64,000 bases of DNA from Schmidtea polychroa (taxonomy: Eukaryota), in assembly GCA_044892525.1 (NCBI GenBank), contig CM097885.1, forward strand, positions 35,962,001-36,026,000. The letters run 5' to 3'. Positions within the stretch are counted from its first letter, which is position 1. Every line of letters begins with the position of its first letter. The notes below the pieces were generated by a model, which worked only from the letters and a program-made list of their open reading frames with translations, was not told where the DNA came from and did not search any database. Of the stretch, positions 352 to 42,846 are shown piece after piece. A program made the position numbers and the translations under genes.

Positions 352-709
352 ATTAACACATTCACATTCATCATCTCCACATTTCATAACATTTTCAACA
401 ACATGATCTATACAATCGTTATATACACGCGGTCAGTATCCGTAAATTCCTCCATAGGTTCATCAATTTCTTGAATGCTTTCCTCATCATCTTGAGTGTT
501 TTCTTCATCAGTTTCATCAAATCCCGAATCTTCACTCTCTGCTACCCAGTCTATATTTAATGCATTTGTAACAGATAATATATCATTCATTTTCACACCA
601 GATATTTCTGCTAATTTTCCCAATAAAAAGTTTATTACAAATTCTAAATATTAAATAATTCGATAAGTAACTAATCATATTAACCTTTTTCTGTAGTCAT
701 TATTAGCAT
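352..709 (-). pseudogene. Polinton acidic small protein, frameshifted copy of 42393-42778, with a 41-nt intron at 644-684
   Basis: KLAEISGVKM..ILS.TNALNI.W is shared with the intact copy, and the intron has the same position and length. The C-terminal DCIDHVVEN.MKCGDD is in a shifted frame. Confidence 0.8.
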
Positions 710-828
710 TTTAAAACTATAGTGTATATTTGTTTACAGAATGTCTTTGTTAAATTTTTTGTATTAGTATAGAAAATAAGTGAAAAACAAATATGACTAA
801 ATACATTTATTAAATACATCATCATTTA

Positions 829-1248
829 TTAAAATATCTGTGAAAGTCTAGCAGACATAATTTTCCAAATTGGAGAATACACATCATTATTATCAACTTT
901 ATATCCTTGGATTGCAATTGTTATATACCAATTTTCATTTTCTTTGAAGCTGATTTCATCAACGGAATCATAAAATCTTGCATATCGGTTGTTGAAAAAT
1001 GCATGTTGATTACATGATAGATTCGTATTCAACCGTTTAAAAACCTCATCAATAGATTTAATATCTATCATTGAAAGTGTGCCGGATACGAATTGAAATT
1101 GAGTAGGAATTAGCTTGATCGGTGACACCAATTTCATATTGATTTCTTCTTTTAAAAAATACATTTTGTAGTTGTGGAACATTTGAACAGGTTGTACAAG
1201 TTCTGGAACAACTTTTGGATTTTCAGTGCTTGAAAATTTCTTTGTCAT
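829..1248 (-). CDS. Polinton accessory protein, near-identical homologue of 41856-42266
   Basis: Intact 139-aa ORF; the C-terminal ISFKENENWYITIAIQGYKVDNNDVYSPIWKIMSARLSQIF is identical to the intact copy. Confidence 0.8.
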   Translation of the reverse strand: MTKKFSSTENPKVVPELVQPVQMFHNYKMYFLKEEINMKLVSPIKLIPTQFQFVSGTLSMIDIKSIDEVFKRLNTNLSCNQHAFFNNRYARFYDSVDEISFKENENWYITIAIQGYKVDNNDVYSPIWKIMSARLSQIF

Positions 1249-1469
1249 CTCGAATTATGATTAAAATGAAATGGTACAAGGTTTTTATACCTATGACTAT
1301 TGTTTTTCATCCAATCAGATTGCAGCATGTCTTTGTTTTAATTGCATTCAAATTGCATTGATATTGTATTGGCACATGTTTTACATTATTAAAATTATTA
1401 TTATTAATAATATTATTTCTATTACTATTTACTAAAAAAGACAAAACAAAAAATAGTTAAACATAAAGA

Positions 1470-1871
1470 TTTATTTGGATAAAATTTGACAAAAATAATA
1501 TTTGCGAAGTGTCTTTACCAAAGACCATTCGACATATCTCTGGTAGCGGAAATCGCAACAGCTACATCCCAAAATGCAAGGGTATTCTGCTTCCACTTCC
1601 TTCATTGTTCTTCCAATCTACACATCCCAGAGAAATGTATTGATAATATCAAAAATCCAGATTCTTGTTTCATTGTAAATTAAATCTGGGATTATTGCAA
1701 CATCTCGATCTTTGAGAATATCATACATTTAATAAAAATACAATCTTTCCAGTATTATTGCATGATATTCATCTGTAAATAATAATATGATAAATACAAT
1801 TAATATTAAAATTTGCCATAATGTTTATGTTCTTTCATGGCTGCTATAGCTGAACTTTGAATATTGTACAT
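1470..1871 (-). pseudogene. Degenerate copy of the Polinton CSCC-motif protein (41020-41437)
   Basis: Minus-strand translation gives IIPDLIY...FLWD...EYPCILGCSCCDFRYQRYVEWSLVKTLR with internal stops. Confidence 0.75.
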
Positions 1872-2109
1872 GGTTTAAAAATGATAACTAAACCCAAAAC
1901 ATTTTGTTATAAATAATCATCATTTAATAAGATTTCGACCAATCAGAATCATGCATTTCAATTGCACTGAATTTGCAATGATAAATAATTAATTAAGTGA
2001 TAATAAAAATCTCAAAATTCTTTTCCTTCAATTATTGATTTAATTTCAGATATGATATTATCAACTATACATTTGTAATCAATATTTTTTATTCCAAGAA
2101 TTACTATCT

Positions 2110-2504
2110 TACCGCTAGTGAATACACTTGGATTAGAGAAGCAACAATATCAAGAAAAATCGGCTGGTATACGTAAACCAAGAAGCAACCATATCGGGAA
2201 AAATCGTAAACCAAGAATCATCATCATAAACCATCATCAACAAATGTTCATATATACTAATATTATTGAGCTCATCATTGTTGGTGATTCTAGTGTTCCT
2301 TTTTTGAAATCGGTATGGATTGGAAGATATGAACACGATGAAGTTGTCAGTATAAATATAGATAATCCCATGTATTTACCAATTTCAAGCTCATGTATAA
2401 ACAATATAGAAATAAATATTCGTGACGATAGTGGAAAATTTATAAACTTTCCGAAAGATTCGAAAACTCATTTGACATTACATTTTCGTAAAGTAGATGG
2501 CTAA
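2110..2504 (+). pseudogene. Minor capsid (penton) C-terminal fragment
   Basis: HHQQMFIYTNIIE..IVGDSSVP.LKSVW...IEINIRDDSGK.INF....KTHLTLHFRK matches 37058-38131; the N-terminal two thirds are deleted. Confidence 0.9.
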
Positions 2505-2858
2505 TTCAGATATTATTAGTATGTATAATGATAGCCAAACTGGCGGTGAATTACCATATTTCGTTGGTAAACAGTACGGATCAGGTTGGTTAAAAACAAT
2601 AAGGAGATTTGCATTACTTATTCTTAAACGTATTGGTAGTTTTGGCATGAAAACTGCTAAAAACGTGATTATGAATGAACAGAAAATATTACCATCTCTA
2701 AAAACAAATGCTTTGGCTGAGTTAGGGAAGGTTCTACCTGGAGTTGCTGGTATGTTTCAAAAGATACGCTTTCAGCCCCAGCTCCAAAACGTAAAGGACA
2801 TGGAAAATCGCGTATAAATAAACGAATGAAAGGACATGGAACTATATTTGCTAAATGG
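2497..2858 (+). pseudogene. Core protein (QxGG/QYGSG family), frameshifted near the C-terminus
   Basis: Homologous to 36700-37071. Confidence 0.85.
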
Positions 2859-3171
2859 TTTGTGGTAAATCCGAATTATGTATATTTGATAGACCATCGC
2901 CTCAAGCGGTAATCGAATTTGGGGCCTTTGAGGAAGTTTTTCCTATGAATTCACTTACTGATAGTAGAAATGATATCGAGTTTATATTAATGGTTCGCAA
3001 ACTGAATATTTAGATTTGAACGATACTTTATTGACTGTTCAGATCAAGGTTGTAGATAAAGATAAAAAGGTTTTGGATGCCAATGCTGATGTATTGCCGA
3101 ACAATTTCATGTTTCATACTTTTTTTAAAGATGCAGTGTTGGGATTTAATAATATCAAGATTGAGGGTGAT

Positions 3172-3175
<4 letters not shown>
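2855..3175 (+). pseudogene. Major capsid protein N-terminal fragment
   Basis: MVCGKSELCIFDRPSPQAVIEFGAFEEVFPMNS matches the intact MCP; there is a frameshift and the gene is truncated at the (AAT)n tract. Confidence 0.9.
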
Positions 3176-3625
<450 letters not shown>

Positions 3626-6901: not shown

Positions 6902-11291
<4,390 letters not shown>

Positions 11292-25369: not shown

Positions 25370-26408
25370 AGTAGATGGATTGGGCACCGCTGGCACAGGG
25401 CACCGCTAGCACAGTACCCCCCCCCCCGTCGGTAAGATTTTCAAAAATATTCTAAGTCTAAAAGTACATTTTTTTTTCAAGGTCAAATTTAAACAAAGAC
25501 ATATGACTCATCAAGGTCATTGAAACAAAGACCATGAGTCATCCTATGACTCATAAAATTTTTCAAGGTCATTTAAACAAAGACCATGACTCATCCGATG
25601 ACCCATCAAGGTCATTTTCAAGGTCATATGACTCATAATATGACTCATCAAGGTCAAAAAAAATTTCTCAAGGTCATTTAAACAAAGACCATGACTCATC
25701 AAGGTCATTTTCAAGGTCGTATGACTCATAGTATGACTCATTTGACCTTGAAAATTTTTTTTCAAGGTCATATGACTCATCCTATGACTCACCAAGGCCA
25801 TTGAAACAAAGACCATGACTCATAGTATGACTCATTTGACCTTGAAAAATTTTTTTCAAGGTCATATGACTCATCCTATGACTCATCAAGGTCATTGAAA
25901 CAAAGACCATGACTCATAGTATGACTCATTTGACCTTGAAAAATTTTTTTCAAAGTCATATGACTCATCCTATGACTCATCAAGGTCATTTTCAAGGTCA
26001 TATGACTCATAGTATGACTCATTCGACCTTGAAAAATTTTTCCCAAGGTCATATGACTCATCCTATGACTCATCAAGGTCATTCTCAAGGTCATATGACT
26101 CATCCGATGACTCATCAAAATTTTCAAGGTCATTTTCAAGGTCATCTGAGTCATCCTATGACTCATCAAGGTCATTTTCAAGGTCACGTGACTCATCCAA
26201 GGTCATTCCCAAGGTCATATGAGTCATCGCGATGACTCATCAAGGTCATATTATTATTTTTAAAAATATTATTATTTTTATTATTATTATTTTTAAAAAT
26301 ATTATTATTTTTAATTTTTTCAAAGTTCCCGCCAACGAAAATTAATAATCGATAGCTCATTTTAAAGCTCAATCCAAGACCTTTCGAATGAGCTATATAT
26401 CTTGTTAC

Positions 26409-26505
<97 letters not shown>

Positions 26506-26667
26506 CTATATACTCCGAGTCTATATACTCCTAGTCTATCCGACAAAATATTTTGTCCCCCTATGGGTAATGCTCACAAGGGTACTGGTCACGCTCAACA
26601 AATCAACAAAACATACATTTATTTAAACAATAAAATAATGTAAAATTAACAAAGGTAAACTAAATAT
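25370..26667 (+). repeat. Left TIR (~1.3 kb) with an internal TGACTCAT/TCAAGGTCA array and (ATT)n
   Basis: Reverse complement of 43926-45106 apart from repeat-unit copy number and a few substitutions. Confidence 0.95.
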
Positions 26668-27294
26668 ATATAGTATGATATTCATTAATCAGTGTTGAAC
26701 AGGCTTGACACTTGCGAACATTCTTCTCATGACACTTAGAACAAACAATTACGTGACCACACGGTAAATACAAAACCGAAACTCGATTTTCTTTACAAAT
26801 TGAACAAGTTAAATATCTTTTCTTAACATCTTTCAATTTTTTCGTTAGCTTATTTTCAATCAAATCGGCTTTCGCTATCCATTCATAAATCAATCTACTA
26901 TATCCCTGTTTCAACCTTAAAAACATACAACTCCAAAAGTATTCATTCAGTGAATCGTTGTTTACTGCTATTTTTTCTAAGTACATTAAATAACAAGATA
27001 ACTTTAAAATGGATTTCTCATAATTAAATAAATCAAACAAATATTCAATAGAGGAATGTTTGAAAATTTTTAAAATATTTATGAGTTGCTTATCACTGTA
27101 AGTATCATGATTATTTATAAAATCTTCAAGTGTATTGTTAAAAAATGTCAATGAAATTTCAGAATAGGCTGGACTTAATTTTTCCTTATTTCTAGTAGGA
27201 CTTCCTTGCTATAAATGACATATAAAAAAAATTGGCAAAATAATAAAGTTACCAAATGTGTTACACATTCATCGGTTTTATTTGTATAAATCAT
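26660..27294 (-). CDS. IAP/MDM2-type C3HC4 RING finger protein, putative E3 ligase; exons 27294-27253 and 27208-26660; ~196 aa
   Basis: CSICKENRVSVLYLPCGHVIVCSKC...KCQAC; a 44-nt GT-AG intron joins an upstream ATG exon in frame; CCAAT and TATA lie upstream. Confidence 0.85.
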
Positions 27295-27461
27295 TATTAA
27301 TAACTAAATTACTTTTGTTTTTACATTTATAAAAATTGTGATAACCAATCAAAATAGAGCTTTCAAAATGTAACCATCAAATGTATAACAATAATAAGCA
27401 TGACTAGTACCCTTTGCAACCTGTTTAAAGTTTTATTATTATTATTATTATTATTATTAAT

Positions 27462-27581
<120 letters not shown>

Positions 27582-27607
27582 ATTATTATTATTAATATTA
27601 TTTCATT

Positions 27608-27830
27608 GATATAGCTGCAGACTATATATAAAAATATAGCTGCATGCCCACTGCAGACTATATATAAAAATATAGCTGCATGCCCACTGCAGACTATATA
27701 TAAAAAATATAGCTGCATGCCCACTGCAGACTATATATAAAAAAAATATAGCTACATGCCCACTGCAGACTATATATAAAAAACATATAGCTGCATGCTC
27801 ACTGCAGACTATATATAAAAAACATATAAA
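27608..27830. repeat. ~33-bp tandem repeat (atagctgcatgcccactgcagactatatataaaaa)
   Basis: About 6 units, one of them partial; the core is shared with the 32.4-33.1 kb array. Confidence 0.9.
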
Positions 27831-28053
27831 AGTCACCATTAAATACTTATAAAATAAACTTAAAAATTATAATAAAACAAACTTAAAAATTCGAAAAATA
27901 TCTGATTACAAAATTTTATTGAATATATACAAATTTTAAATCAATATATTAATACAAGTTTTTATACATTTTTTTTTATAAATCAAAATAAAAAGTTTTT
28001 TTCAATATATACAAGTTTTTTGATCAAAAGTTTCTGTACAATTCTGAGTTGCC

Positions 28054-31000
28054 CTATTGATCTTCGTCCCATTCGCTGTCGTCAAAACTGGGACTTGGAG
28101 CTGCACTGAATTCCTCATCATATTCGCTTAATTCGTCAACTCCTAAATAATGCCCAAATGCGTAACTTAAGTTTTTTCCTAGCCACGCGCGCTTATCATC
28201 ATTATTACTTAGGGCAATTTTCGAATTTTTAAAAGTAAAAAGTTGGTGATTTCTAGTACCTATTCTAGTCTGCGGTACAGAAATCACCTGATTTGAATGA
28301 AAGCAATTTAGATATGATTCGTGATTTATTGATGTCCCTGGTAATTTAACCCCTTTCGCTTTTACCGTTTCCTTACTACCTAAAAGACTATAACATTTAG
28401 GGCGTAAGAAAACCCATTCAGAATACCCTAATCCCTTGCTCTCATCTTTAAACTTCCCGATGACCGAGTCAAGGTTCCTACTATACAAGGGGTGGGTTGG
28501 ATCGTAATTTGACGTATCCAATAAATTATCAGAGATCATCTGAGGTAATAAAGTTGTTAATTTTAAATTTTTTATTTCCAAAAAGAAACTGTCGGTATCA
28601 CCGGCAATAATATTTATGATACATTTATATTGGCGTCTGTACTTCTCCAAATCAATATATTGGAGCTGGTACATCCGCAGTTTAGACAGATCTAGTACTG
28701 TTTGACCAATGTAGCTAGGTCTGTCTAAACAAATCACATCTTTTTCCAAATGTGCCGCAATCAGATCTTGATCGATTCTTATGGACTTTCTGAAAGTCGG
28801 CTTTGAGGAGTATACTATCATCTTTTCGGATGAATTACACAACCTCAAATTCATTCTTTTTTTCAAATTTTCAACCGATTTACCGTAAAGAGAGTTATTA
28901 TACAATTTAAACAAGTCCCTATATATCTCGCTAGTAGACTGAGATCGTAAAGTGGTGTTGGTGTCTATGTAGGATTTAAAGATAGGTCCTTGTTTAAACT
29001 TTATACACCTATGAATATTTACAACAACCGCACCTAATTCTATATACAATTTGAGAAGCCTCCAATGAAGAACATAGTTCCTCTTTGGCCAATGCGTAAG
29101 CATAAGCTTCTCAACTTTTGAATTAGGCGGGCACAACTTTTCCGGCGCAAGCGGAAAATCATTCAAAAAGTCATGCACACATTCCGGAATATCGATATCG
29201 ACCTCCATAGTATACCCATATGGAAGGTTATCAATATCCGTGTTCATACATTCAAGTAAAACATCATTCAAGTTATTATTCACCCAAGAAAAATCACCAT
29301 ACGGAAGATTTTGGCTAAGAGCCCAACCATACAGATTATTTATATCAATGTACAATAATTCTGTATCATCTGAAGTAGCCGTGTAATGTTTGTTAACAAA
29401 TGTTAACCCACCCCGGATACCTCCCTCATAGAAATTATACATTTCCATGTCCTGCAGAAGTTCTATTGGTTCCGTTAATGTCATAAGCGCTGAGGCCCAT
29501 GACATACCGGGAATCCCGTAGAAATTAAGAGGATCCAGACCATTGTAAGCAATTGCCTTACCGCGGAATTGCTGAAAATAATCTGCGAGGAGGTATACGT
29601 CCAATTTTAGGTAGATTAACATATAATCTAACAAATTATTACAGTTATGCTGACTCCAAATTAGTTGAGCCTCAGCGTACTGATCTTCCGTAACATCAGA
29701 CCAAATAGGAGGTAATTCTAAAGTCGATTCAAGAACATCTAAAGAAGTAGCGAAATTATATGGAAAGATACCTTTAGAGTGAATCATCGACCCTTGAAAG
29801 ACAGACGAAGTCAAAGGAAAAGTAGTTAAGGTTTTCACAGCTTTTGCTAAAGAACAATTAACAAATTGCATGCTGTCAATAAAACGAACAGGCAATTTGT
29901 TAATATATGCAATTAAAGATATAAATTTTTCTGTAGAGGTAGGTATAATATTAAGTTCCCAAAGGGGAAAATCACTGAGACCATGTTTTAAAATATGGTG
30001 GAGGTCATAGCCTCGTAAATTATGAAAGACAACAGGTAACAATTTATTAATCCTGCGAGAGACATTGCATTTCCTACATGCCGCTCCGACATATCTACCT
30101 GTAAAATGGCAATGATCTCTCACAGGATTAATAATAGATTTTTTACACAAATAACAAATAGTGGAAGATCGAAAGGCACGCTCCTGAGCAAAAGACAAAG
30201 TAGACATACCTTTACGACCTTCAAGATCATAATATGGCAGGACAATTGTGACAGCAATTTCCTCCACTTTCCTCAAAAAATCCAAAATACAATTAGGTCC
30301 AAAAAAATAATAATAAAATTTAGTGTGTGTATAATTATTAATTAATAAAAGACCTGCTGATATGGGTAAATGTATTTGATGATATGTTTCATGTTCTGGT
30401 AAAACCGATTCAAAATCGGCATAAATTACGAAGGGAGGTGTAACTGTTTTTGCGTAATCTGTGAATAATAAATCTTTATTTTTAGGAAGTGTATACAAAG
30501 TTGTGCCAGTCTGATTTTTACAGCATAGAGCAACATGCTGATCGAAAGCATTCTTATATCTAAAGCCATTTAAACAATGTGGGCACCAGTTACACCTTAT
30601 TTGAACATTTACATTTTCATTTTCATGACAATTCATTAATTTGTCCAAGTCTGTCACGGCTGTATAATGATATTTATCTTTATTACTCAAAAGTAATAAA
30701 TAAATTGGTCTACCGTCTATAACCTTGGAGCGATGTACTATATTAAGATGAGGGTGGTGAGCTACATAATCCTCAGAAATATCTAAATCAGAACTGGCTG
30801 GATTATAAGACAGAACGTTTATGCTCAAGTTTAAATCTCTATTTTTTCTTTCAAATTTGGGAATGTTGCATAGCCTCATCGGGCAATCAGTGTCTTCGTC
30901 ATAATTTAATAGAGGTAAAAATTCTATATATTTGGCGGCTCTTTGGTGATTACGACCTATTTCTTCTCTTTTTAAAAGTGCAAGAATGCTATACAAGAAG

Positions 31001-32357
31001 CACTTATGGTCGTTGTTTTTAACGTTAATTATTGCATGTTTTAATTTTAAAGCCGATGGGGTTTTTATATAGCTATGTCCGGATAATCTACTAACGGGTG
31101 CGTATTTCGTTAAAATAAAATCTATTTCTAAAATATTCACTACTCGCCACCCGCTTCCTAAATAGGTGAATTGCTCAATCTTTTCATTTAATTTGCTCAC
31201 CCCCTCGTTTATAAAGTTTGATGTAAAAACTTGAGCATTGTTTGAAAAATAATTATCCCGGATCTCCCCATCTTTTTCAAATTTAATTAAAATTGTGAAT
31301 TGTATTTTTACATTGCCCATCTTTTCTATTTCCTCTATTAATCTATCTTCAATTTTTGATGTTAGGGCTATTTTAACCAGGTTTTCATTTCTTATATTAA
31401 ATTTTAATGTTTTACGTGATCCATTCAAATCGGATTCAACAACTGGTTCAAACAAAGAGCCGCCTATTTGAAATATGTTGAAAGACGTTGAAGCTACACA
31501 TTCATCATTGATGACTATCACTTCTTGTTGTGTAATGGGTGATTGTTGTGTAATGGGTGCTTGTTGTGTAAACGATGTTGAAGCTACACATTCATCTTTG
31601 CTGATGACTATCACTTCAGGTCGCGATAATTTATTAGGAATGCAATTTTTAATTAAACCAGCAGGTCTTTTAATAGAATCTTTTTTAATATTTATAATAT
31701 CTTTTTTAATAATATTTATAGTATCTTTTTTAATAGCATCTTTTTTAATAGAATCTGTTTTTTCTTTTATAATATTTTTTTTAATATTTTTTAAATCTTT
31801 TTTAATATCTATTTTTATATCTTTTTTAATAGTATTTTTTGGTAAATTTTTTTGTAATTTTTTATTTATTTTTTTAAATAAAACATTTTTTGATATCGAA
31901 AATTGCCCTAAGTGACAATGATGTTTATTAAAAAATTCCCTATATTTTACTTTTTCGCTCGTTACACATTTGGGGCATATAAAAAAGTTGAGCGAATTAA
32001 ACGTCTTTTTGTAGTATTTTCTCATTGTGCGATGACATTTATCGCTATGTCCATTTGCAGCTTGGCAATAATTTGGGTATAGTTTACCTGTTAAATAATA
32101 AAATTAAAGTTTTATTTTTTTTTCTAATTGTTATTAATTGTTACATCTATAAGGATTTATCATCATTTGTTATTTAATTCAAATGAACTATATAACAAAT
32201 GATGATAAATCCTTATAGAAAATAGGTTAATATATTCGAGAGAATATTAGAGAGATTTTAGTAGATAGGTCAGATTATTATATGAATATGTTAAATATTA
32301 GAGAGATTTTAGTAGATAGGTCAGATTATTATATGAATATTAGACGAGTCAGATTAA

Positions 32358-32410
<53 letters not shown>

Positions 32411-33118
32411 TGAAGAGAAGTAGCTGCATGCCCACTGCAGACTACTATGTAGCTACATGCTTACTGTAGACTACATTATTATTATTAATATTATTATTAT
32501 TATTATATTGAAGAGAAGTAGCTGCATGCCCACTGCAGACTACTATGTAGCTACATGCTTACTGTAGACTACATTATTATTATTAATATTATTAATATTA
32601 TTATTATTATTATATTGAAGAGAAGTAGCTGCATGCCCACTGCAGACTACTATGTAGCTACATGCTTACTGTAGACTACATTATTATTATTAATATTATT
32701 ATTATTATTATATTGAAGAGAAGTAGCTGCATGCCCACTGCAGACTACTATGTAGCTACATGCTTACTGTAGACTACATTATTATTATTAATATTATTAA
32801 TATTATTATTATTATATTGAAGAGAAGTAGCTGCATGCCCACTGCAGACTACTATGTAGCTACATGCTTACTGTAGACTACATTATTATTATTAATATTA
32901 TTAATATTATTATTATTATTATATTGAAGAGAAGTAGCTGCATGCCCACTGCAGACTACTATGTAGCTACATGCTTACTGTAGACTACATTATTATTATT
33001 AATATTATTAATATTATTATTATTATTATATTGAAGAGAAGTAGCTGCATGCCCACTGCAGACTACTATGTAGCTACATGCTTACTGTAGACTACATTAT
33101 TATTATTAATATTATTAA

Positions 33119-33188
<70 letters not shown>

Positions 33189-34608
33189 TTAACTATTGTA
33201 GATGCACATTGCAAACTACAAGGATTTATTTTATAACTATAATTTTGTAATCACTTTTTTAAATACTTTGATTATATTTCAAAAAACATAGTATTTTCTT
33301 CATAATTTTCGTCATATTTTCATCATAATTTTGGTCATATTTTCATCATAATTTTGGTCATAATTTTGGTCATAAATCATTTTCATTTTGTTCATAAATT
33401 TTCGTCATAATTTGGGCATAAATCATCATAATTTGGGCATAAATCATTTTCTTCATAATTTGGGCATAAATCATCATAATTTGGGCATAAATCATCATAA
33501 TTTGGGCATAAATCATCATAATTTGGGCATAAATCATAAATCATCATAATTTGGGCATAAATCATTTTCTTCATAATTTGGGCATAAATCATCATAATTT
33601 GGGCATAAATCATCATAATTTGAGCATAAATTCATAATTCATTTTCTTCATAAGTTTGATCATAAGGTTCATCAAAATATTTAAGAAATTTTCATCAAAA
33701 ATTAAAGAAATTTTCATCAAAATATTTAAAAAAAAAGTGATTACGAAATTTAAATATCAAAAATATATATAAAATAAATAAATCTTACATTCTGATTCCA
33801 TATCGGAATCTGAGTCTTCAGCAACCGAACTGAGGGTATTATCATCAATTGTTACATTTTCCATAAAATCTTCATCGATGGAATCCGAGTCTTCAGCAAC
33901 CGAACTGAGGGCATTATCATCAATTGTTACATTTTCCATAATTTCTTCTTCATCGATGTCGACATTGAAATTAAACGCTAAAAAATAAAATTTTTAAAAA
34001 TAAATTACTAAAGTAAATAAATTTACTTTTTTCTTTGATAACCTTGGTTTGCCCAACATCAATAACTGGGGCATCCGATTGTCCAAGAAAAATAATATCT
34101 TCATCACTATTTTCATTAACATTTTCTGTAATGCAAATTAATTTAATAAAAATTAAAATAAATTTACTTTTTTCTTTGAAAACATAGTTGTGCCCAACAT
34201 CATTAACTGGGGCATCCGATTGTCCAAGAAAAATAATATCTTCATCACTATTTTCATTAACATTTTCTGTAATGCAAATTAATTTAATAAAAATTAAAAT
34301 AAATTTACTTTTTTCTTTGAAAACATAGTTGTGCCCAACATCATTAACTGGGGCATCCGATTGTCCAAGAAAAATAATATCTTCATCACTATTTTCATTA
34401 ACATTTTCTGTAATGCAAATTAATTTAATAAAAATTAAAATATTAAATTTACCAAATATATTTTCCACATTTAAAATGGCATCGTTTTCTGTAACTTCGT
34501 ACCAGTCGAATGGTTCTAAAATAAAATATAATAAAAATCGAATAAAAATAATAATAATTTACCGTTAGTCAAAAGACTTCTCAATACTCGATTCTTGTTG
34601 GTTTCCAT
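28054..34608 (-). CDS. Protein-primed DNA polymerase B polyprotein. Main exon 32087-28054; predicted upstream exons 34608-34563, 34515-34453, 34407-34309, 34266-34168, 34125-34027 and 33977-33789; ~1540 aa
   Basis: Exonuclease motifs YADFES and FHNLRGYD; polymerase motifs DINNLYG, KLYNNSLYGK and GDTDS; OTU-like NDHKCF..HY; endonuclease VII-like CYLC..VRDHCH..CRKCN. All six predicted introns are GT-AG and phase 1. The main ORF is secure; the leader exons are predicted. Confidence 0.9.
32405..33190. repeat. Seven ~100-bp tandem units with a constant GC-richer core and variable ATT spacers
   Basis: tattgaagagaagtagctgcatgcccactgcagactactatgtagctacatgcttactgtagactac repeated 7 times. Confidence 0.95.
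33295..33655. repeat. 21-bp tandem repeat (tcatcataatttgggcataaa)
   Basis: Seen directly in the sequence. Confidence 0.9.
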
Positions 34609-34949
34609 TGATTTCAAATAGATTTTCGAATTGATTTTCAAAATTTCAAAATAATTGTGACAAATTTTAGATTTGTCAATGTTTATAAAGAGAATGAATA
34701 TTTTCCTGTCCCAGCCAATGAGAATATAGACACACACACATATACATTGAATATTTTACTCTCTCAACCAATCACACGCATGCATGTATGTAATGTAAAT
34801 CAGTCAGAATTACATGTGACTGCCTTTGTTAGTCATGCCTTTGTTAACTTGCACTGTGCATGCCTCAGGCAAAGGCAGTCTTTATGTTACAAATAATAAT
34901 ATTTATTAGAATAATAATAAAATTAATTAAAAATAATAATATTTTTCAC

Positions 34950-34992
<43 letters not shown>

Positions 34993-35069
34993 TTAATAAT
35001 ATTAATAATAACACAACAACAAAGGAAAGGATACATTTATTAAACATCAAATTTATTAAACATTTTTCT

Positions 35070-35482
35070 TTAAACATCAAATTTTTTGTACAATAACCAA
35101 GCTAAACAATGTTGACCGCATGTTTGGGTCAAAGGATTTTGAAACATAGTTTTATTATACACAATAGGTTTTCCCATTGTTTGTAGTTTTGATATCAACA
35201 AAGCTGGGTAATAGAAACCCATCGGATCGAACACGAATATATTACCAGGTTTCACATATATAGCTATCCAATGTTCTCCACCAAGATGAGACGATTGAGT
35301 ATTGACGATTATTGCTTGATTATTGCTCAAATATGGAATTTTATCAAGAGGAAAAACTCCAACAAATTCATTTCCCAATATCTGTTTTCCGATTTTATTG
35401 ACCTGAACAGAACTATTTAAATAAATCCAGAGTATAAAAAAACAACTTACTCCATGATAACTTTTTGTGTTTCTGTATACAT
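35070..35482 (-). CDS. Adenain-like cysteine protease; 38-nt intron at 35413-35450
   Basis: GVFPLD, IVNT......GEHWIA, FDPMG and Q......CGQHC. The spliced N-terminus reads (MYTETQKVI)MDSVQVNKIGKQILG. Confidence 0.92.
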
Positions 35483-36703
35483 TTATACCAACACGGTTCT
35501 ATTTGCAGTAATTTGAACTTCATTTTCAAATACTCCATATATTATAACATGTACTGGTTCAGTAATAGCTTTGGCAAACTTTATATCCAGTCGTAAATTC
35601 CCGTTTTGTGGTAATTGACTTTGATTTAAATCAAAATCAGGGGCTAAAACAAATGTAAAAAATGGGTATTTGCTTTTAAAATCTTCTAGTGTTATTCCGC
35701 AATTCAAATTTTTATCTAAATAACCCAGATTTCTAACAATACTCTGCATATATGTCGCACAGTAATTGTCATTCTCGAAATCTTGAATATATGTTTCTCT
35801 ATAATCAGTATTTTTCGACAAAGTCAATGATGTAACACCAAAGTTTTTGAAAATTGAGCTGGACGCAGTATATGATCCATTATATTGTGCTTCACTTTGA
35901 AATGTTATCAGAATAAAATTAGGCATTCTTCTGTCACCAAATATTTGTTCTTTATAGAATGATGAAGCACCTTTAGCAATAGCAAATTGTACAATTTCCT
36001 TTGTTTTTAAGGGATAAATTGCATGTTTTGAATTAAGACCCAATTGATGACCAGCTAATACAGAGGGGTCTACTCGAACTCTTCTCACCAATAATTTTGC
36101 ATCAACTAATTGACATATTGGTGCAGTAGTTGCACTAGTAAGAGATAATGCAGAATCAGACCTTTTCAATCTAATATGTACATTAACTCCCGGTAGTAAA
36201 TATTTCGGTTGATCCATAAAATCAAGTTGTAATGATGAGCACATGGTGAAAACCTTTGAGCCTTTTACCCACTTTTTTCTTTCATCATCACTGCCATAAC
36301 CCATAGGAGTAAGACATGTATTTTTAGTATCGGAATTGTAATTTAAAATAGTTTCTATTAATGCCTTGTGAATGAATGTATTATTTCCGCCCTCAATCTT
36401 GATATTATTAAATCCCAACACTACATCTTTAAAAAGAGTATGAAACAGGAAATTGTTCGGTATTACATCTGCATTGGCATCCAAAACTTTTCTATCTTTA
36501 TCTACAACCTTAATCTGAACAGTCAATAAAGTATCGTTCAAATCTAAATATTCGGTTTGTGAACCGTTAATATAAAACTCGATATCATTTCTACTATCTG
36601 TAATTGAATTCATAGGAAAAACTTCCTCAAATGCCCCAAATTCTATTACAGCCTGGGGCGATGGTCTATCAAATATACATAATTCAGATTTACCACAAAT
36701 CAT
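35483..36703 (-). CDS. Double jelly-roll major capsid protein
   Basis: 406 aa with Polinton MCP motifs KSELCIF..P, IEF.I.G...YLDL..T.L, NNFLFHTLF, Q.KYLLPGV and GNLRLDIKF. Confidence 0.93.
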   Translation of the reverse strand: MICGKSELCIFDRPSPQAVIEFGAFEEVFPMNSITDSRNDIEFYINGSQTEYLDLNDTLLTVQIKVVDKDRKVLDANADVIPNNFLFHTLFKDVVLGFNNIKIEGGNNTFIHKALIETILNYNSDTKNTCLTPMGYGSDDERKKWVKGSKVFTMCSSLQLDFMDQPKYLLPGVNVHIRLKRSDSALSLTSATTAPICQLVDAKLLVRRVRVDPSVLAGHQLGLNSKHAIYPLKTKEIVQFAIAKGASSFYKEQIFGDRRMPNFILITFQSEAQYNGSYTASSSIFKNFGVTSLTLSKNTDYRETYIQDFENDNYCATYMQSIVRNLGYLDKNLNCGITLEDFKSKYPFFTFVLAPDFDLNQSQLPQNGNLRLDIKFAKAITEPVHVIIYGVFENEVQITANRTVLV

Positions 36704-37071
36704 TTTGCAAATATAGTTCCATGTCCTTTCATTCGTTTGTTTATACGTGATATTCCATGTCTTTTACGTTTTGGAGCATGAGCTGGAGCTGGTGCTGGAG
36801 CTGGTTTTTGAAACATACCTGCAACCCCGGGTAAAACTTTCCCTAATTCTGCTAAAGCATTTGTTTTTAGAGATGGTAATATTTTCTGTTCATTCATAAT
36901 AACATCTTTTGCAGTTTTCATACCAAAACTACCGATACGTTTAAGAATAGGCAATGCAAATCTACCTATTGTTCTCAACCATCCTGATCCGTACTGTTTA
37001 CCAATAAAATATGGTAAATCACCACCAGATTGGCTACCACTATACATACTAATAATATCAGAATTTGCCAT
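36700..37071 (-). CDS. Virion core or membrane-active protein with protease cleavage motifs
   Basis: QSGG and QYGSG followed by the amphipathic WLRTIGRFALPILKRIG and a basic C-terminus; typical position between penton and MCP. Confidence 0.8.
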   Translation of the reverse strand: MANSDIISMYSGSQSGGDLPYFIGKQYGSGWLRTIGRFALPILKRIGSFGMKTAKDVIMNEQKILPSLKTNALAELGKVLPGVAGMFQKPAPAPAPAHAPKRKRHGISRINKRMKGHGTIFAK

Positions 37072-38131
37072 CTACTTTACGAAAATGTAATGTCAAATGA
37101 GTTTTTGAACCTTTTGGAAAGTTTATAAGTTTTCCACTATCATCACGAATATTTATTTCTATATTGTTTATACATGAACTTGCTATTGGTAAATACATGG
37201 GATTATCGATATTTATATTGACAACTTCATCATGTTCATATTTGCCAATCCATACCGATTTCAAAAGAGGAACACTGGAATCACCAACAATTATGGGTTC
37301 GATAATGTTAGTATATATGAACATTTGTTGATGATGTTCTAGTATTCTTGGTTTGCGTATACCAGTCGATTTTTCTCGATATTTTTGCTTATCTAATCCA
37401 AGTGAATTTGCCAAATTTTTATCAAATGTAACTTCGCAAATATCATCATTCAAACTGAAGGTAAACATCAAATCTTTCACAATTTCCAAATTTTTAAATA
37501 TGTGTGAACAATTGAACTTTAAATATTTAAGTAAATCATCAAGTTTATCAAAATATAATTCATCAGCAAAGGTAAATGATTCTTCAACTTTATCATTATA
37601 CGACACAGATATTTTGATTTCTTCTTTCATTACACTGTTTGCTTCAAATAGATTAAAACGTAATAAATACTCGGTCTCCGTAACAATATTTTTCAACTTA
37701 TTGCAACCCATTCGTTTGGCATCTTCAATAGTTTCGAATGTTATTGTAAATGGTTTAAAATCACAACTGATATTTAATCCATCCTTGTAAAACATATAGC
37801 AATGCGAATCTAATATTTGATTCGGAATATGATATGTTTTATCATAATTACTGATAACAAAGATACCGCTACATGTTTTCACAATATTCCTTTTGAAATC
37901 AATCTTACATTGACTATAAAATGGGAATGTGTTGTACACGAATGTAAAATCTTGCAGTGCAACTTCCCAATCCCCATTTAAAGAAATCGGATTCTGAAGA
38001 TTGACCATGAATTTACTGGCTTGATTGTCTGGATGAATTAATGGACAACTATTGCTCGGCAAAATAGTATAAAAATTCACTTTACTAGGTCTTTTGCTGA
38101 TATCCATGACGGGTTTTGATAACCATGCCAT
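37058..38131 (-). CDS. Minor capsid protein (penton)
   Basis: FY.ILPSNS....PDN..S.F.V.L..PI.L.G.WEVAL at the N-terminus and IVGD..VPLL...IEINIRD..G..I.F....LTLHFR at the C-terminus. Confidence 0.92.
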   Translation of the reverse strand: MAWLSKPVMDISKRPSKVNFYTILPSNSCPLIHPDNQASKFMVNLQNPISLNGDWEVALQDFTFVYNTFPFYSQCKIDFKRNIVKTCSGIFVISNYDKTYHIPNQILDSHCYMFYKDGLNISCDFKPFTITFETIEDAKRMGCNKLKNIVTETEYLLRFNLFEANSVMKEEIKISVSYNDKVEESFTFADELYFDKLDDLLKYLKFNCSHIFKNLEIVKDLMFTFSLNDDICEVTFDKNLANSLGLDKQKYREKSTGIRKPRILEHHQQMFIYTNIIEPIIVGDSSVPLLKSVWIGKYEHDEVVNINIDNPMYLPIASSCINNIEINIRDDSGKLINFPKGSKTHLTLHFRKVDGKF

Positions 38132-38706
38132 TTGACATAGTATTGTTTATCCTTACCGACCTTTTTAGTTTTCAATATTTTTTGAATTCTAAATACTTTT
38201 GGGGGAGGAATGACTTGTAATTCCTGCTCATAAAATTTCCCCTGTACAATATTATTATCATTGTCTTTGATGACATACATTACAGGATGCTGTTTAGTAT
38301 TTATTTTTGAAATTACAAAGACTTCATCACTCCAATTTGTATCAAAATTTTTAATAAATGGTGATGCACTAATTTTACTAATTCTAACATGGTCACCGAC
38401 TTTATATTTAGGTTTTGCAATTTTTACAGATTTTTTAGATAATGATGTTTTTGATGTAATATCAACCGGTCTCAATCCATTCAGTCCTCGATGTGATGAA
38501 TGATTATAACTTGTTATTATTTTCGGTAAAGCATTTACCCATTTTTTATTACCTTGATGCACGAACAATTTCTTTAATCGATCTCTCAATGTTCGATTAA
38601 ATCTTTCAACATGGGCAGCTTTGTATTGAGAATGTACCGAGTAGTGATTTATTTTCAGTTTATCGAGGATTTGCTTAACTTTGCTATTGTAGAATTCTTT
38701 ACCTAA

Positions 38707-38783
<77 letters not shown>

Positions 38784-39171
38784 CTAAATCTGTTTGCAAA
38801 TTATTAGGATGTCCATCTTTAAATAAAATATTAATTGCCTTGGACATTTCTTCTGCAGATTTTGCCTTGACTGGTATTGCTCGTGCAAACCTGCTGTATA
38901 CATTAATACATGTTAAAATATATTTATTCCCATTGTTAATTTTCGAATATGGTATCATCTCCATCAAATCCATTTGCCATAAATCGTCAATACCAAATGT
39001 TTTATACGCTCTTGTTGGAAATCTTTTCCGCATTGGTTTGTTCAAACTGTACGCAAGCTGATCTGATAACCACTTCTGGGTTTCTTTTTTCGAATTCGGA
39101 ACTCTTTTGTTTAATTTTGCCACTCCACCGAAACCGGCTTCGTCTTCTGGGTTCGTCCAAATCTTCTCCAT
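38077..39171 (-). CDS. Retroviral-like DDE integrase with C-terminal chromodomain; 81-nt intron at 38703-38783
   Basis: WQMDL, QTDLG|KEF, VERFNRTL, YKVGDHVRIS and the chromodomain YYVKWHGY..PSWI. Confidence 0.95.
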
Positions 39172-39229
39172 TACAACAAGAAGATTTAAAATTAAATTTA
39201 ATGTCGGGCAATGAAGGATTAGCACCCAT
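39002..39229 (-). CDS. Overprinted small ORF with N-myristoylation consensus and a CC motif
   Basis: MGANPS (G2, S6), FKSSCC and basic RRRSR; its ATG sits 3 nt after the stop of the upstream gene. Confidence 0.55.
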   Translation of the reverse strand: MGANPSLPDIKFNFKSSCCNGEDLDEPRRRSRFRWSGKIKQKSSEFEKRNPEVVIRSACVQFEQTNAEKISNKSV

Positions 39230-39232
39230 TGT

Positions 39233-39766
39233 TTATGATTGATTTCCTACAACTCCACCTAATAATGATAATGCCAGAGGTATCAAGGCACCAATAAATC
39301 CACCTTGTTGTTTATATATAATTTTCCTCATTTGCTTACGATTTTTATTATTTACTAAAGATAATAAAGGTTTCCTATGTTTGCTCAATAAATGCTTTTT
39401 TGATTTACTGATTTTAATTTTGCCTTTGACTACTTTAAGTATAATATTGAGTAAATCATCGACAACAAAATTTGGGAATGATTGCAATATATTCATTCTT
39501 TTCATACTCGGAGCCTTTAACAATGCATTAAAAAATGGAAAACTGCGATGATTTTTAACTACTTTTTTACCGGTTTTACGGGTTTTACGGGTTTTACGTT
39601 TAGGTTTAGGATTTTTCGAAATAAGATTCATTGCAGAGAAATTTTCAGTTACAAGTTTTTTAGATGGTGTATAACTAGTTGTTGGTGGAACTTTTGGAAC
39701 TTTAATAGTCTTTCTAATACCTTTTCTTAATTTCCTAATATTTTTCACCCTTGCTTTTAGAAACAT
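39233..39766 (-). CDS. Highly basic core protein with C-terminal QQGG and hydrophobic peptide
   Basis: K/R-rich; ends KQQGGFIGALIPLALSLLGGVVG, typical of Polinton core or membrane-lytic precursors. Confidence 0.8.
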   Translation of the reverse strand: MFLKARVKNIRKLRKGIRKTIKVPKVPPTTSYTPSKKLVTENFSAMNLISKNPKPKRKTRKTRKTGKKVVKNHRSFPFFNALLKAPSMKRMNILQSFPNFVVDDLLNIILKVVKGKIKISKSKKHLLSKHRKPLLSLVNNKNRKQMRKIIYKQQGGFIGALIPLALSLLGGVVGNQS

Positions 39767-39784
39767 TATTATTCATAGAGGTTT

Positions 39785-40411
39785 TCAACTTTGTTTATAA
39801 ACCATGGCACCTTTTGGGTTGAAAATATCTGTTTTTACACGTAAATCATCGGGACATTGTTGTGTGAAATCAAGAAATATATATCCATGAGGTATTTTTG
39901 TAGCATCTTGAAATGCACTGATAAGAAAATTACGATTGTTAGGGTATGCTTGACGTGCAAGAAAATCAATCACTGTTGCATCTCTAGGATTCTTGAAAAT
40001 GACTAAATACTGTACATTTAAATTACGTGTTCGATGTGCCCCACCTTGATGAAATAGATTTTGAGTTATGAAAATAACTGTTACACCGACATGTCTGCTG
40101 ATCTTTGTAAATAAATTATTAAAATCTTTTTCTTTATTAGCTTCTTGATACAAATCATCGATAATAATGACATCACCTTTCTTTAATCGGCTGGACCAGT
40201 TTTTATCGAATCCCTTTACTATTTTCATGTTTTTTAATTTACAGAAACTTGATTGAGTTAATCCATGTTCTTCATCAGCACCCCTATGCCAATAAATCCT
40301 GTTGAATTTTGATTTGAATAAATTTGATTTTAGTAATTTACAAACAAATAATGTTTTTCCACTACCACTCGGACCAACGATTTGGTATACTGCATCATTT
40401 CTTAATTCCAT
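39785..40411 (-). CDS. A32/FtsK-like DNA packaging ATPase
   Basis: Walker A GPSGSGKT, Walker B IIIDD, SRH, FITQNLF, LVIFKNPRD and HGYIFLD. Confidence 0.96.
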   Translation of the reverse strand: MELRNDAVYQIVGPSGSGKTLFVCKLLKSNLFKSKFNRIYWHRGADEEHGLTQSSFCKLKNMKIVKGFDKNWSSRLKKGDVIIIDDLYQEANKEKDFNNLFTKISRHVGVTVIFITQNLFHQGGAHRTRNLNVQYLVIFKNPRDATVIDFLARQAYPNNRNFLISAFQDATKIPHGYIFLDFTQQCPDDLRVKTDIFNPKGAMVYKQS

Positions 40412-40510
40412 TTCAAAAATTTTATATATGTATATTTGTTTATATTCGATGATTTAATGAACTCATGCTCAATTTGTATATAAAGACTAATTTTCATAAA
40501 TGATTTAATA

Positions 40511-40948
40511 ATGTTAGCAAATATAAATTATCGAGGAAATTTTGATGTATCGAATATGAGGTTCCCACCTGGGAAACCCCAGCAAATTATCGATAGAAGC
40601 GGGAAATATCCGATAATATTTTTCAAGACTGGTAAATGTCGAATCATGGGATGTAAGAAACCTTTGGATATTAATAAATTACAATATCGAATAAATAATA
40701 TTAAAATCCAATCAATTACCGTTACTATGGATATGGGACATAGTATCAATCTATATAACATGTCGAAAAAATGTGATTGTATGTTTGAACCAGAATTGTT
40801 TCCGGCACTAAGACTAATAAAATATAACCCTATATGTGTCAATGTGTTTGCTAGTGGAAAGGTTGTCATGTTGGGGTTGAGAAATTTGGAGTATAGAGAA
40901 TTTGTTGACAATGTTCGAAATGAGATAATTTCATTGGTCGATTTTTAA
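40511..40948 (+). CDS. TATA-binding-protein-like protein (divergent, 145 aa)
   Basis: IKIQSI...INL...FEPELFPAL...VNVFASGKVVMLG aligns to TBP repeat 2 (YEPELFPGL...IFVSGKVVLTG); IIFFKTGKCRIMG aligns to repeat 1. Confidence 0.85.
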   Translation: MLANINYRGNFDVSNMRFPPGKPQQIIDRSGKYPIIFFKTGKCRIMGCKKPLDINKLQYRINNIKIQSITVTMDMGHSINLYNMSKKCDCMFEPELFPALRLIKYNPICVNVFASGKVVMLGLRNLEYREFVDNVRNEIISLVDF

Positions 40949-41019
40949 TTGGTTAATTTCTAATTGGTTATTGATTGATTTAAACAAACGGTTTTTTGTT
41001 TAGAATTCATTTTTTCACT

Positions 41020-41437
41020 ATGTACAAAATACCAAGCTCTGCAACCCTCATGAAGGATATTGACGATTCCGGTAAATTTAAAATTTTTATTTTCACATTA
41101 TTTACTATTTATTATTTTAGAAAAATATATCAAAGTTATGATCAACAGGATAAAATATTATTATCCGCAAATCAATGAAATTATCAAGGATAGAGAAGCA
41201 GAAATAATTCCAGACCTCATTTTCTACACAACACAAATTAGAATAATGGAGGTATTTCACCAGTTCTTGTGGGATCTTAAGATAAACAGAAGCATCAAAC
41301 AAATGGAGCCAGAGTACCAGTGCATCATCGGATGCTCATGCTGTGCCGATCGATATCGGCGATATGTCGAATGGGAGTTAGTGAAAACTCTGCGAAGGTT
41401 TCACTACTCCCGGATTGTAGATCTTGGATATGAATAA
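41020..41437 (+). CDS. Unknown accessory protein with a CxxGCSCC motif; 49-nt intron at 41072-41120
   Basis: Splicing joins two short ORFs in frame; a homologue exists at 1470-1871; AATAAA overlaps the stop. Confidence 0.75.
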
Positions 41438-41855
41438 ATGTATTTTTGTATCTGTTGTGTTTTTTATATTTGAAATAGTAATAAATAATAGTAATAATAA
41501 TAATATTAATAATAATAATAGTAATAATAGAAATAATAATAGTAATAATAGAAATATGAATAGTAATAATAATAGAAATAATAGTAAAAAAAAACATTAA
41601 TAATAATAATGAAACACCTTATTAATAAATCTGTAAATAGAACATATAACAAAACATGTAATAATTAAAACATTAATAATAAAACACATAAATAATAAAT
41701 CTGTAAATAGAACATATAACAAAACATGTGACAATGCAACATCAATGCATTTTGAATGCAATTTTAAACAAAGACATGCTGTAATCTGATTGGTTGATAG
41801 ACATGAGTCAAAGGTATAAAAACCCTGTAACATTTCAATTTATTCATTATTCACG

Positions 41856-42266
41856 ATGACCAAGAAAATTTCAAGCACCGAAAAACCAAAAGAAATGGTA
41901 CAACCAGTTCAAATGTTCCACAACTACAAAATGTATTTTTTGAAAGAAGAAATCAATATGAAATTGGTTGCACCAGTCAAGCTAATTCCAACTAAATTCG
42001 AATTCTTATCCGGCACGCTTTCAATGATTGATGTCAAAACTATTGATGATGTTTTTAAACGGATAGATTCGAATCTATCGTGTAATCAACATGCATGGTT
42101 CAACAATAGATATGCAAGATTTTATGATGCTTTTGATGAAATCAGTTTCAAAGAAAATGAAAATTGGTATATAACAATAGCAATCCAGGGATATAAAGTT
42201 GATAATAATGATGTATATTCTCCTATTTGGAAAATTATGTCTGCTAGACTTTCACAAATATTTTAA
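41856..42266 (+). CDS. Unknown accessory protein (possible OB-fold ssDNA-binding protein)
   Basis: Conserved between the two elements; CCAAT/AP-1/TATA promoter upstream; beta-rich C-terminal pattern. The function is speculative. Confidence 0.75.
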   Translation: MTKKISSTEKPKEMVQPVQMFHNYKMYFLKEEINMKLVAPVKLIPTKFEFLSGTLSMIDVKTIDDVFKRIDSNLSCNQHAWFNNRYARFYDAFDEISFKENENWYITIAIQGYKVDNNDVYSPIWKIMSARLSQIF

Positions 42267-42392
42267 TGTTATATTTAATAAATGTATTAGTCAGATTTGT
42301 TTTTCTCTTTATTAATTGCAACATAAATGCAAATGACATGCAAATTTAACAAAGAAAATCTATAAACAAAATTATAATATAGTTTTAAAGTG

Positions 42393-42778
42393 ATGAAAAT
42401 GACTGCAGAAAAAGGTTAACATGATTAATTAATTACCGAATTATTTATTATTTAGAATTTTTAATCAACTTTTTGTTGGAAAAGTTAGCAGAAATATCTG
42501 GTGTGAAAATGGAGGATATATTATCTATTACAAATGCCTTAAATATCGGCTGGTTAGTTGAGAGTCAAGATACAGGATTTGATGATGAGGAAGAAACTCA
42601 AGAAATTGATGAGGAAGAAACACAAGAGGAAATGTATGAACCTATAGAGGAACCTATAGAGGAACCTATAGAGGAACCTAAAGATGAATCTAAAGATAAT
42701 ATTACGAATGATTGTATTGATCATGTCGTTGAAAATATAATGAAATGTGGAGATGACGACTGCGAATGTGTTAATTAA
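42393..42778 (+). CDS. Acidic small protein with Cys-rich C-terminus; 41-nt intron at 42415-42455
   Basis: The intron is conserved with the copy at 352-709; EEPI repeats; C-terminal CIDH...KCGDDDCECVN. Confidence 0.75.
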
Positions 42779-42846
42779 TAAATCTTAGTGTTTGTAAATT
42801 TATTTAAAATTTTATTTAAAAATCAAACAAAATAACTATATAAATT

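Follow-up and report, generated by a model that had tools for sequence, protein, structure and literature searches.

A TBP-like protein encoded by a Schmidtea polychroa Polinton and the YATAAACR box before its virion genes: a probable late-gene transcription factor

Why would a Polinton in which no RNA polymerase is found encode a TATA-binding protein? The question is raised by a 145-aa ORF at 40511..40948 (+ strand) of the window, the 64,000-nucleotide stretch of Schmidtea polychroa DNA analyzed here; its product is referred to below as mini-TBP. The original prediction, made from the sequence letters, took it for a late-gene transcription factor or TBP mimic that redirects host Pol II. The ORF lies within a 19.7-kb element (25370..45106) with AGTAG termini, terminal inverted repeats of ~1.2 kb and a 6-bp target-site duplication, TGTTTA; PolB, integrase, ATPase and protease, further hallmarks of a Polinton/Maverick, are also present. 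The host genome (G000) is AT-rich, 781 Mb in size and animal-type. As had been claimed, the element appears to lack an RNA polymerase: Pfam detected no such family among 13 window ORFs, in which spliced genes are represented only in pieces. The element genes have GT-AG introns and AATAAA signals, and the anatomy of the element, as read from its sequence, fits nuclear Pol II transcription.

Facing the mini-TBP gene is a block of genes on the - strand. The first encodes an A32-like packaging ATPase (39785..40411; Pfam Pox_A32, E 3.6e-7) and is followed by a basic 177-aa ORF (39233..39766), conserved after the ATPase and without a family match, and by a retroviral-type integrase with a chromodomain (38077..39171; Pfam rve, E 1.1e-5), with an ATT microsatellite near 38700-38785 that is likely intronic. 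Beyond these lie a putative penton/minor capsid ORF (37058..38131), a basic 123-aa ORF (36700..37071) conserved before the capsid gene, and a putative major capsid protein (35483..36703). Both capsid labels are assumed from gene order; a Pfam search for jelly-roll capsid families gave no match for the penton ORF and no significant one for the major capsid ORF. The adenovirus-type maturation protease (35070..35452; Pfam Peptidase_C5, E 2.7e-6) is probably spliced and its start is approximate. A further ORF, that of the PolB (28054..32025, -), is 52-72% identical to 30 PF03175 loci of the same genome, and its own Pfam match is to Endonuclease_7 only.

Other features of the element and its surroundings were also recorded. 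A small ORF at 39005-39229 (-) overlaps the integrase start and begins with MGANPS, a start that is similar in its relatives and that we take to be a possible myristoylation signal. A weakly Bcl-2-like ORF (43050-43361, -; E 0.03) and a RING-finger ORF (26660-26986, -; E 5.7e-10) are, judged by sequence, candidate anti-apoptotic accessory genes. The CCAAT-box-like sequence TGATTGGTTGATAGAC is common to 41787-41822 and 43422-43444 (+), ahead of the canonical TATA of two accessory genes, and ATTGG repeats occur at 40933-40970, before a gene at 41020. One contig of a presumed-RNA run joins across 41070-41120 with GT..AG ends and 21 letters on its short side, a weak hint of splicing that concerns the neighbouring gene only. 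The terminal repeats (25598-26235 and 44341-44889) contain many TGACTCAT/ATGAGTCA units, presumably AP-1-like, in 93-bp repeats. Elsewhere in the window there is a further, decayed copy of this Polinton family (514-3178, 86-92% to 36379-37341 and 41891-42585) and, at 7167-11196, a perfect inverted repeat of 1986 nt with a spacer of 58 nt.

The identity of the mini-TBP gene was examined by Pfam, an AF2 model, fold searches and family conservation. The two-repeat TBP signature proposed for it was recovered by Pfam, which matched TBP (PF00352) in two stretches at E 1.3e-15; the score of 57.4 bits exceeds the curated cut-off of 22.9 and places the protein in the TBP family by profile. The second repeat is conserved as had been read, with FEPELFP and VFASGKVV both present. 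The model, based on an 87-sequence alignment, is a two-lobed saddle (pLDDT 96.5), the fold that structure prediction was expected to give; it aligns with yeast TBP over all 145 residues (Z 13.2, rmsd 2.4 A), the next unrelated fold having Z 6.4. A search of the ESM Atlas with the mini-TBP returned generic TBP clusters. An antisense ORF at 40528-40869, found at 12 of 82 loci, was taken as a shadow of the TBP frame.

Relatives of the protein were readily found: 109 of 113 candidates by protein search, and 357 of 1278 when a profile was used. Merging protein searches and loci gave 338 sequences, of which 266 were left below 80% identity, and this survey thus defines a family of 266 non-redundant mini-TBPs borne by Polintons. 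Gene context was drawn from 81 loci and 5 further loci; among the best 80 of 182 metagenomic TBP loci, 38 have a Polinton core gene, and most of the remaining ones are short. In the host genome, the 150 scored matches were the best of 4174 candidates, a choice biased to near-identical copies, and all were full-length and 99-100% identical. When 30 copies were chosen by their ATPase start, a sample that includes the window's own copy and favours young copies, the TBP frame was unbroken in 21 and the ATPase frame in 24, so that the gene is not pseudogenised in most of these sibling copies. A viral contig collection yielded only one TBP (L031), of the ordinary giant-virus type. The TBP ORF is covered by contigs from sequencing runs that are presumably RNA; since one of them bridges the intergenic gap, expression of the TBP gene does not follow from this coverage.

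In all 78 pairs of 13 mini-TBP alleles, pS (0.55-0.89, with dS often saturated) exceeded pN (0.15-0.39). By this measure the family evolves under purifying selection, and no positive selection was seen. Trees of TBP and ATPase from 23 loci have a common deep 11|12 split, and the gene is therefore old in this Polinton clade. At least five TBP allele types of the host genome (L122-L141, L184, L191) are only 53-62% identical to the window's mini-TBP, whereas the ATPases beside them are mostly 87-97% identical; on these figures the gene either has the look of a cassette that is exchanged between elements or evolves much faster than its ATPase neighbour. Recent capture from the host's own TBP genes found no support in a quick tree, where a branch (SH-aLRT 99) separates the mini-TBP family from the 9 cellular and viral references, host paralogues among them. 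The host itself (L112-L121) has a canonical TBP and at least five divergent TBP paralogues, some with an intron-free core.

The first repeat had been described as shortened and without its first DNA-intercalating Phe, and both features were seen. The sheet is complete in the model; lobe 1 is without helix H1, and H2 is shrunk to a 3-residue turn; the lobe-1 spacers measure 15 and 19 residues, whereas those of six cellular or giant-virus references measure 26 and 32-33. Longer lobe-1 spacers occur in distant members (60 of 244 full-length ones). Since these long forms keep the same signature, and most short-form members nest within them in a quick tree, the sequences point to a stepwise loss of the lobe-1 helices. 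The basic N-lobe helix H2 is deleted in the short form and is net negative on average in the 60 long-form members. At the column of the first intercalating Phe, 94% of the 266 members have Pro (Pro23 in the window), so that the full set of four Phe of canonical TBP is not present. The other three are conserved (Phe38 97%, Phe97 99%, Phe113 99%), as are the C-lobe glutamates C.L3.2 and C.L3.4 that bind TFIIB (Glu93 94%, Glu95 99%). Seven further columns, which face DNA in TBP structures, hold polar or otherwise changed residues where cellular TBP has Val, Thr, Asn, Ile or Leu: Asn6 (80% of the 266 members), Arg44 (97%), Met46 (99%), Ser68 (87%), Thr70 (83%), Arg101 (82%) and Asn111 (99%).

The mini-TBP and ATPase genes are separated by a gap of 99 bp (40412-40510) with TATA-like words on both strands, as had been stated. 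Their head-to-head arrangement had been offered as a supporting point. It was found in 20 of 20 loci examined in the host genome, but in 24 of the 26 metagenomic loci that have both genes TBP and ATPase lie on one strand, and the two divergent loci have ~0.4 and ~1.7 kb of DNA between the genes. The layout was thus ruled out as a functional signal.

Two different TATA-like elements are found within the gap. On the + strand a canonical TATA box, TATATAAA (40477..40484), stands 34 nt before the mini-TBP start and, from its sequence, is likely the early, host-TBP promoter of this gene. On the - strand, 33 nt before the ATPase start, is a sequence of the form YATAAACR (40437..40444), which is retained in all five head-to-head allele types of the host genome. 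The same box recurs along the virion block, always on the - strand and often inside the gene upstream. It is found in the 3' end of the ATPase gene, 33 nt before the 177-aa ORF (39792..39799); inside the 177-aa ORF, upstream of the small ORF that starts at 39229 and of the integrase (39309..39316); and, as CATAAACA, 66 nt before the integrase start (39230..39237). The putative penton gene has a variant, GATAAACA, upstream of it, within the 3' end of the integrase gene (38144..38151), and this site reads C/TATAAACA in sister families. The 123-aa ORF has a box 101 nt ahead of it, in the 3' end of the penton gene (37165..37172; 7 of 7 relatives), and itself contains one that lies 42 nt before the putative major capsid gene (36738..36745; 10 of 11). 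Altogether an exact or one-letter variant box precedes six virion-block genes; the protease has TATAAATG at the capsid gene end (35480..35487, -), which is not of the YATAAACR form. Outside the virion block, one box on the + strand (42361..42368) precedes a small gene that is probably spliced.

The box was counted in de-duplicated windows from -120 to +30 around gene starts, sense against antisense and against shuffled sequence; the loci are related, and the counts are not independent events. On the sense strand it was present before the ATPase in 23 of 24 windows, the capsid gene in 10 of 11, the 123-aa ORF in 7 of 7, the integrase in 12 of 15, the penton gene in 9 of 15, PLA2 in 10 of 12, the 177-aa ORF in 8 of 8 and a distant counterpart of the latter in 10 of 10. 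Antisense boxes numbered 0 in each gene class, and shuffled sequence gave means of 0.2-0.8. The set is incomplete among virion genes (protease 3/6, c13 ORF 0/9) and extends outside them (exonuclease-like ORF 14/21, LRR ORF 5/5). The ATG mostly follows the box by 32-50 nt. For the TBP gene itself, YATAAACR was found in 0 of 62 windows, and canonical TATA in 27 of the 62 against 9.7 expected. The two kinds of site also differ downstream: a TCA initiator at +30 to +32 was counted 27 times among 42 canonical TATA sites and 6 times among 80 box sites. Where the box lies inside the upstream gene it constrains codons, 26 of 29 gene-end Y/H-K pairs being box-forming against ~45% expected. Both halves of the 11|12 tree split use the box.

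Polinton stretches without the TBP gene are almost free of the box, which occurred in 1 of 29 of their gene windows. Eight of these windows, all without it, come from a second, unrelated repeat-bounded Polinton type of the host genome that has no TBP-like gene; the other 21 are from four partial contigs without a TBP gene, and their single box is inside a coding region. Of the five control elements, it should be noted, four are partial contigs, three of them with 51-56% GC, and gene starts in the controls were picked by eye. Controls are few because ATPase, capsid and integrase queries gave no match in the viral contig collection. The second type is represented by L202 and L185 (G000 C2, ~104.940-104.955 Mb) and by L203-L197; it has a PLA2-fused integrase, a PolB ~28% identical to that of the window, and mostly genes that start with a TAAAATG-like sequence, and one copy is a 10-kb inverted duplication. 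Five Polinton contigs (L206-L210) are found inside bacterial metagenome-assembled genomes, where they are most likely mis-binned; L206 has a long-form TBP and the YATAAACR box.

From these results we propose that mini-TBP is probably a late-gene transcription factor that binds YATAAACR and recruits host TFIIB and Pol II. What is observed directly is the gene and how it is conserved, together with the box, the position and strand it occupies and the classes of gene it precedes; the term 'late' is taken from the identity of the genes. Host TBP/TFIID would transcribe the mini-TBP gene from its ordinary TATA box and initiator, and mini-TBP would then bind YATAAACR with its rewired DNA face. In cellular TBP the N-lobe faces the 3' half of the TATA box; the lost Phe and new polar residues of mini-TBP lie in this lobe, which would face the part of the box that departs from the TATA consensus. 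The intact C-lobe glutamates are predicted to dock host TFIIB. TFIIA, TAF1, Mot1 and Brf1 act on a basic N-lobe patch of TBP (Ravarani et al., accessible text of PMC7221094), and without helix H2 mini-TBP would escape TFIIA, TAF1, Mot1/BTAF1 and Brf1, with a TFIID-independent late phase as the outcome. Since the N-lobe surface is missing, co-immunoprecipitation with TFIIA is predicted to be negative. The proposal retains the core of the original prediction, for which the box, the rewired DNA face and the TFIIB glutamates argue strongly if indirectly; what fell away are the gene layout and the absence of a polymerase as arguments.

Is the TFIIB partner that of the host? Pfam found no TFIIB in 13 window and 29 neighbour proteins, nor beside Polinton copies genome-wide, a search by which a highly diverged or spliced copy would be missed. 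The host genome gave 32 TFIIB candidates against 2998 TBP candidates; the ten TFIIB loci that were inspected have the appearance of genes of the host, and an integrase fragment lies near one of them. Clusters of ~13 intron-less, divergent host TFIIB paralogues are present at L150 and L151 (G000 C3, 38-39 Mb; C1, 23.8-24.2 Mb). Host TFIIB retains the Arg-Thr pair. Complex prediction of mini-TBP with a TFIIB core 92% identical to the host exon scored 0.48, the best control scoring 0.00; runs agreed in at least 81% of contacts, and partner pLDDT was at least 84. The mark for such scores was passed by 51 of 78 solved and 2 of 108 mismatched pairs, while scores at 0.60 or under comprised only 5 of the 78 solved pairs and all 4 passing mismatches. 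Like complexes have already been solved, and the score may therefore reflect memory; the model lends weak backing to TFIIB docking. For the fuller formulation, in which mini-TBP is a 145-residue Pol II 'sigma factor' that swaps specificity to YATAAACR, uses host TFIIB and is blind to N-lobe regulators, we consider the chances to be about even.

The strongest competing explanation, though an unlikely one, is that host TBP itself reads YATAAACR as a weak TATA variant and that mini-TBP is a decoy or repressor, soaking up TFIIB or occupying TATA boxes and thereby dampening host or early viral transcription. We take C(-25) of the TATA box to correspond to position 7 of YATAAACR. A crystal structure (1qn3) has cellular TBP on a C(-25) variant, bound with Hoogsteen pairs (PMC4402545, accessible portion), and a box of this kind is thus open to binding by host TBP; the latter would not be expected to favour C over A or T there, yet the C is fixed. 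The gene ends themselves supply a second consideration. Two contigs, L208 (5244, 7685) and L209 (967, 3361), have TATAAGAC/TATAAAGAC where TBP-bearing Polintons have YATAAACR, and no TBP gene was detected within the contig stretch examined; on this sequence comparison, TATA-like boxes at these gene ends may predate the viral factor, as the decoy would allow. The loss of one intercalating Phe also suits a decoy, as does the contrast between the divergent TBP alleles and their conserved ATPase neighbours, which is the behaviour of a host-facing gene. A decoy would need no invariant, rewired DNA face, however, and it leaves the box unchanged in all allele types and the canonical promoter of the TBP gene, unlike YATAAACR, to be accounted for.

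Considerably less probable is that the box is bound by a different factor, perhaps a forkhead protein of the host, and that mini-TBP has its role elsewhere, as in Pol III transcription with Brf1/2. The forkhead core is RYAAAYA, which ATAAACA matches. Among 120 box sites, however, a pyrimidine precedes the core in 111 and G is the last letter in 20, GTAAACA being nearly absent, and the strict sense orientation and fixed distance of the box likewise speak against this reading. Brf1/2 use the same C-lobe glutamate, but Brf1 also requires the N-lobe basic patch that is deleted in mini-TBP (both from the accessible text of PMC7221094). Least probable of all, by a little, is a packaging or replication role with mini-TBP as a DNA-bending scaffold on repeated signals: the gene often adjoins that of the packaging ATPase and the box is repeated along the genome, but the box tracks gene starts and gene strand rather than genome ends, and the TFIIB-contacting glutamates are near-invariant.

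The preferred reading, a late-gene factor, may be compared with known TBP systems. Mini-TBP resembles cellular TBP (PF00352; eukaryotic TBP and paralogues, archaeal TBP) in its saddle (Z ~13, rmsd 2.3-2.7 A), three of four Phe and a C-lobe EPELFP stirrup with both glutamates, and differs in its Pro for the first Phe, the absence of H1 and basic H2, and its polar DNA face. A viral TBP without a viral polymerase had been regarded as unusual; here there is a precedent in the beta/gamma-herpesvirus vTBPs, since KSHV ORF24 works with host Pol II at TATT late promoters (accessible text of PMC7498053) and, in the part of bioRxiv 2025.08.25.672222 available to us, has a polar DNA face for its variant box. 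The likeness thus covers the lack of a viral RNA polymerase, the polar DNA face and a variant TATA before late genes. As far as these sources go, ORF24 is a multi-domain protein that makes direct contact with Pol II, depends on five further viral activators, and has four Phe and no TFIIB glutamates, whereas mini-TBP is a bare 145-aa saddle that keeps those glutamates and does not fit the ORF24 type. By analogy, mini-TBP likely works like ORF24 but stands outside the ORF24 family.

The TBPs of NCLDV share the viral TBP fold and a divergent N-lobe, the best BFVD match of mini-TBP being at E 1.5e-8 and 16% identity. The glutamates are lost from most viral TBPs, which come with a TFIIB encoded by the virus itself: in the accessible text of Ravarani et al. 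(PMC7221094), C.L3.2 is ~40% conserved in NCLDV TBPs and nearly all have their own TFIIB. In mini-TBPs the position is 94% conserved and a TFIIB was not found, so that the sequences make this family the opposite. A gene labelled 'TBP', in a midsize virus whose PolB is adintovirus-like, is also named for the MELD/adintovirus-like maps of Starrett et al. 2021 (PMC8502044; bioRxiv 697771, as accessible). The label appears in the Fig. 5 legend only, in a section on non-animal datasets whose accessible text gives neither an analysis nor a promoter motif, and the gene so labelled may belong to the mini-TBP family. The terms 'TBP' and 'TATA' gave no match in the accessible text of Jeong et al. (PMC10748475), Krupovic et al. 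(PMC11161782) and bioRxiv 2026.06.19.733378, or in one supplement of PMC8502044, and the available parts of PMC5294985 and PMC8575486 hold nothing on the mini-TBP family. No study of a Polinton TBP or late promoter was found in the openly available text of articles and preprints, to which the search was confined.

If the late-factor reading is true, mini-TBP should favour YATAAACR over TATAAAAG, and host TBP the reverse. The pair of factor and box, one small protein and one 8-mer, is directly testable, and a TBP of altered specificity, paired with a promoter of its own, could be put to use for orthogonal transcription. It would be a third viral design on the TBP fold, beside the TBP-TFIIB pairs of giant viruses and the six-protein herpesvirus complex, and the long and short forms within one family trace the stripping of the TBP regulatory lobe. 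The pair addresses the question of the autonomy of Polintons as viruses and of the timing of capsid production, and it argues for a regulated nuclear life cycle. A clade of animal Polintons would then have an autonomous early-to-late switch that needs no viral polymerase, viral TFIIB or helper virus.
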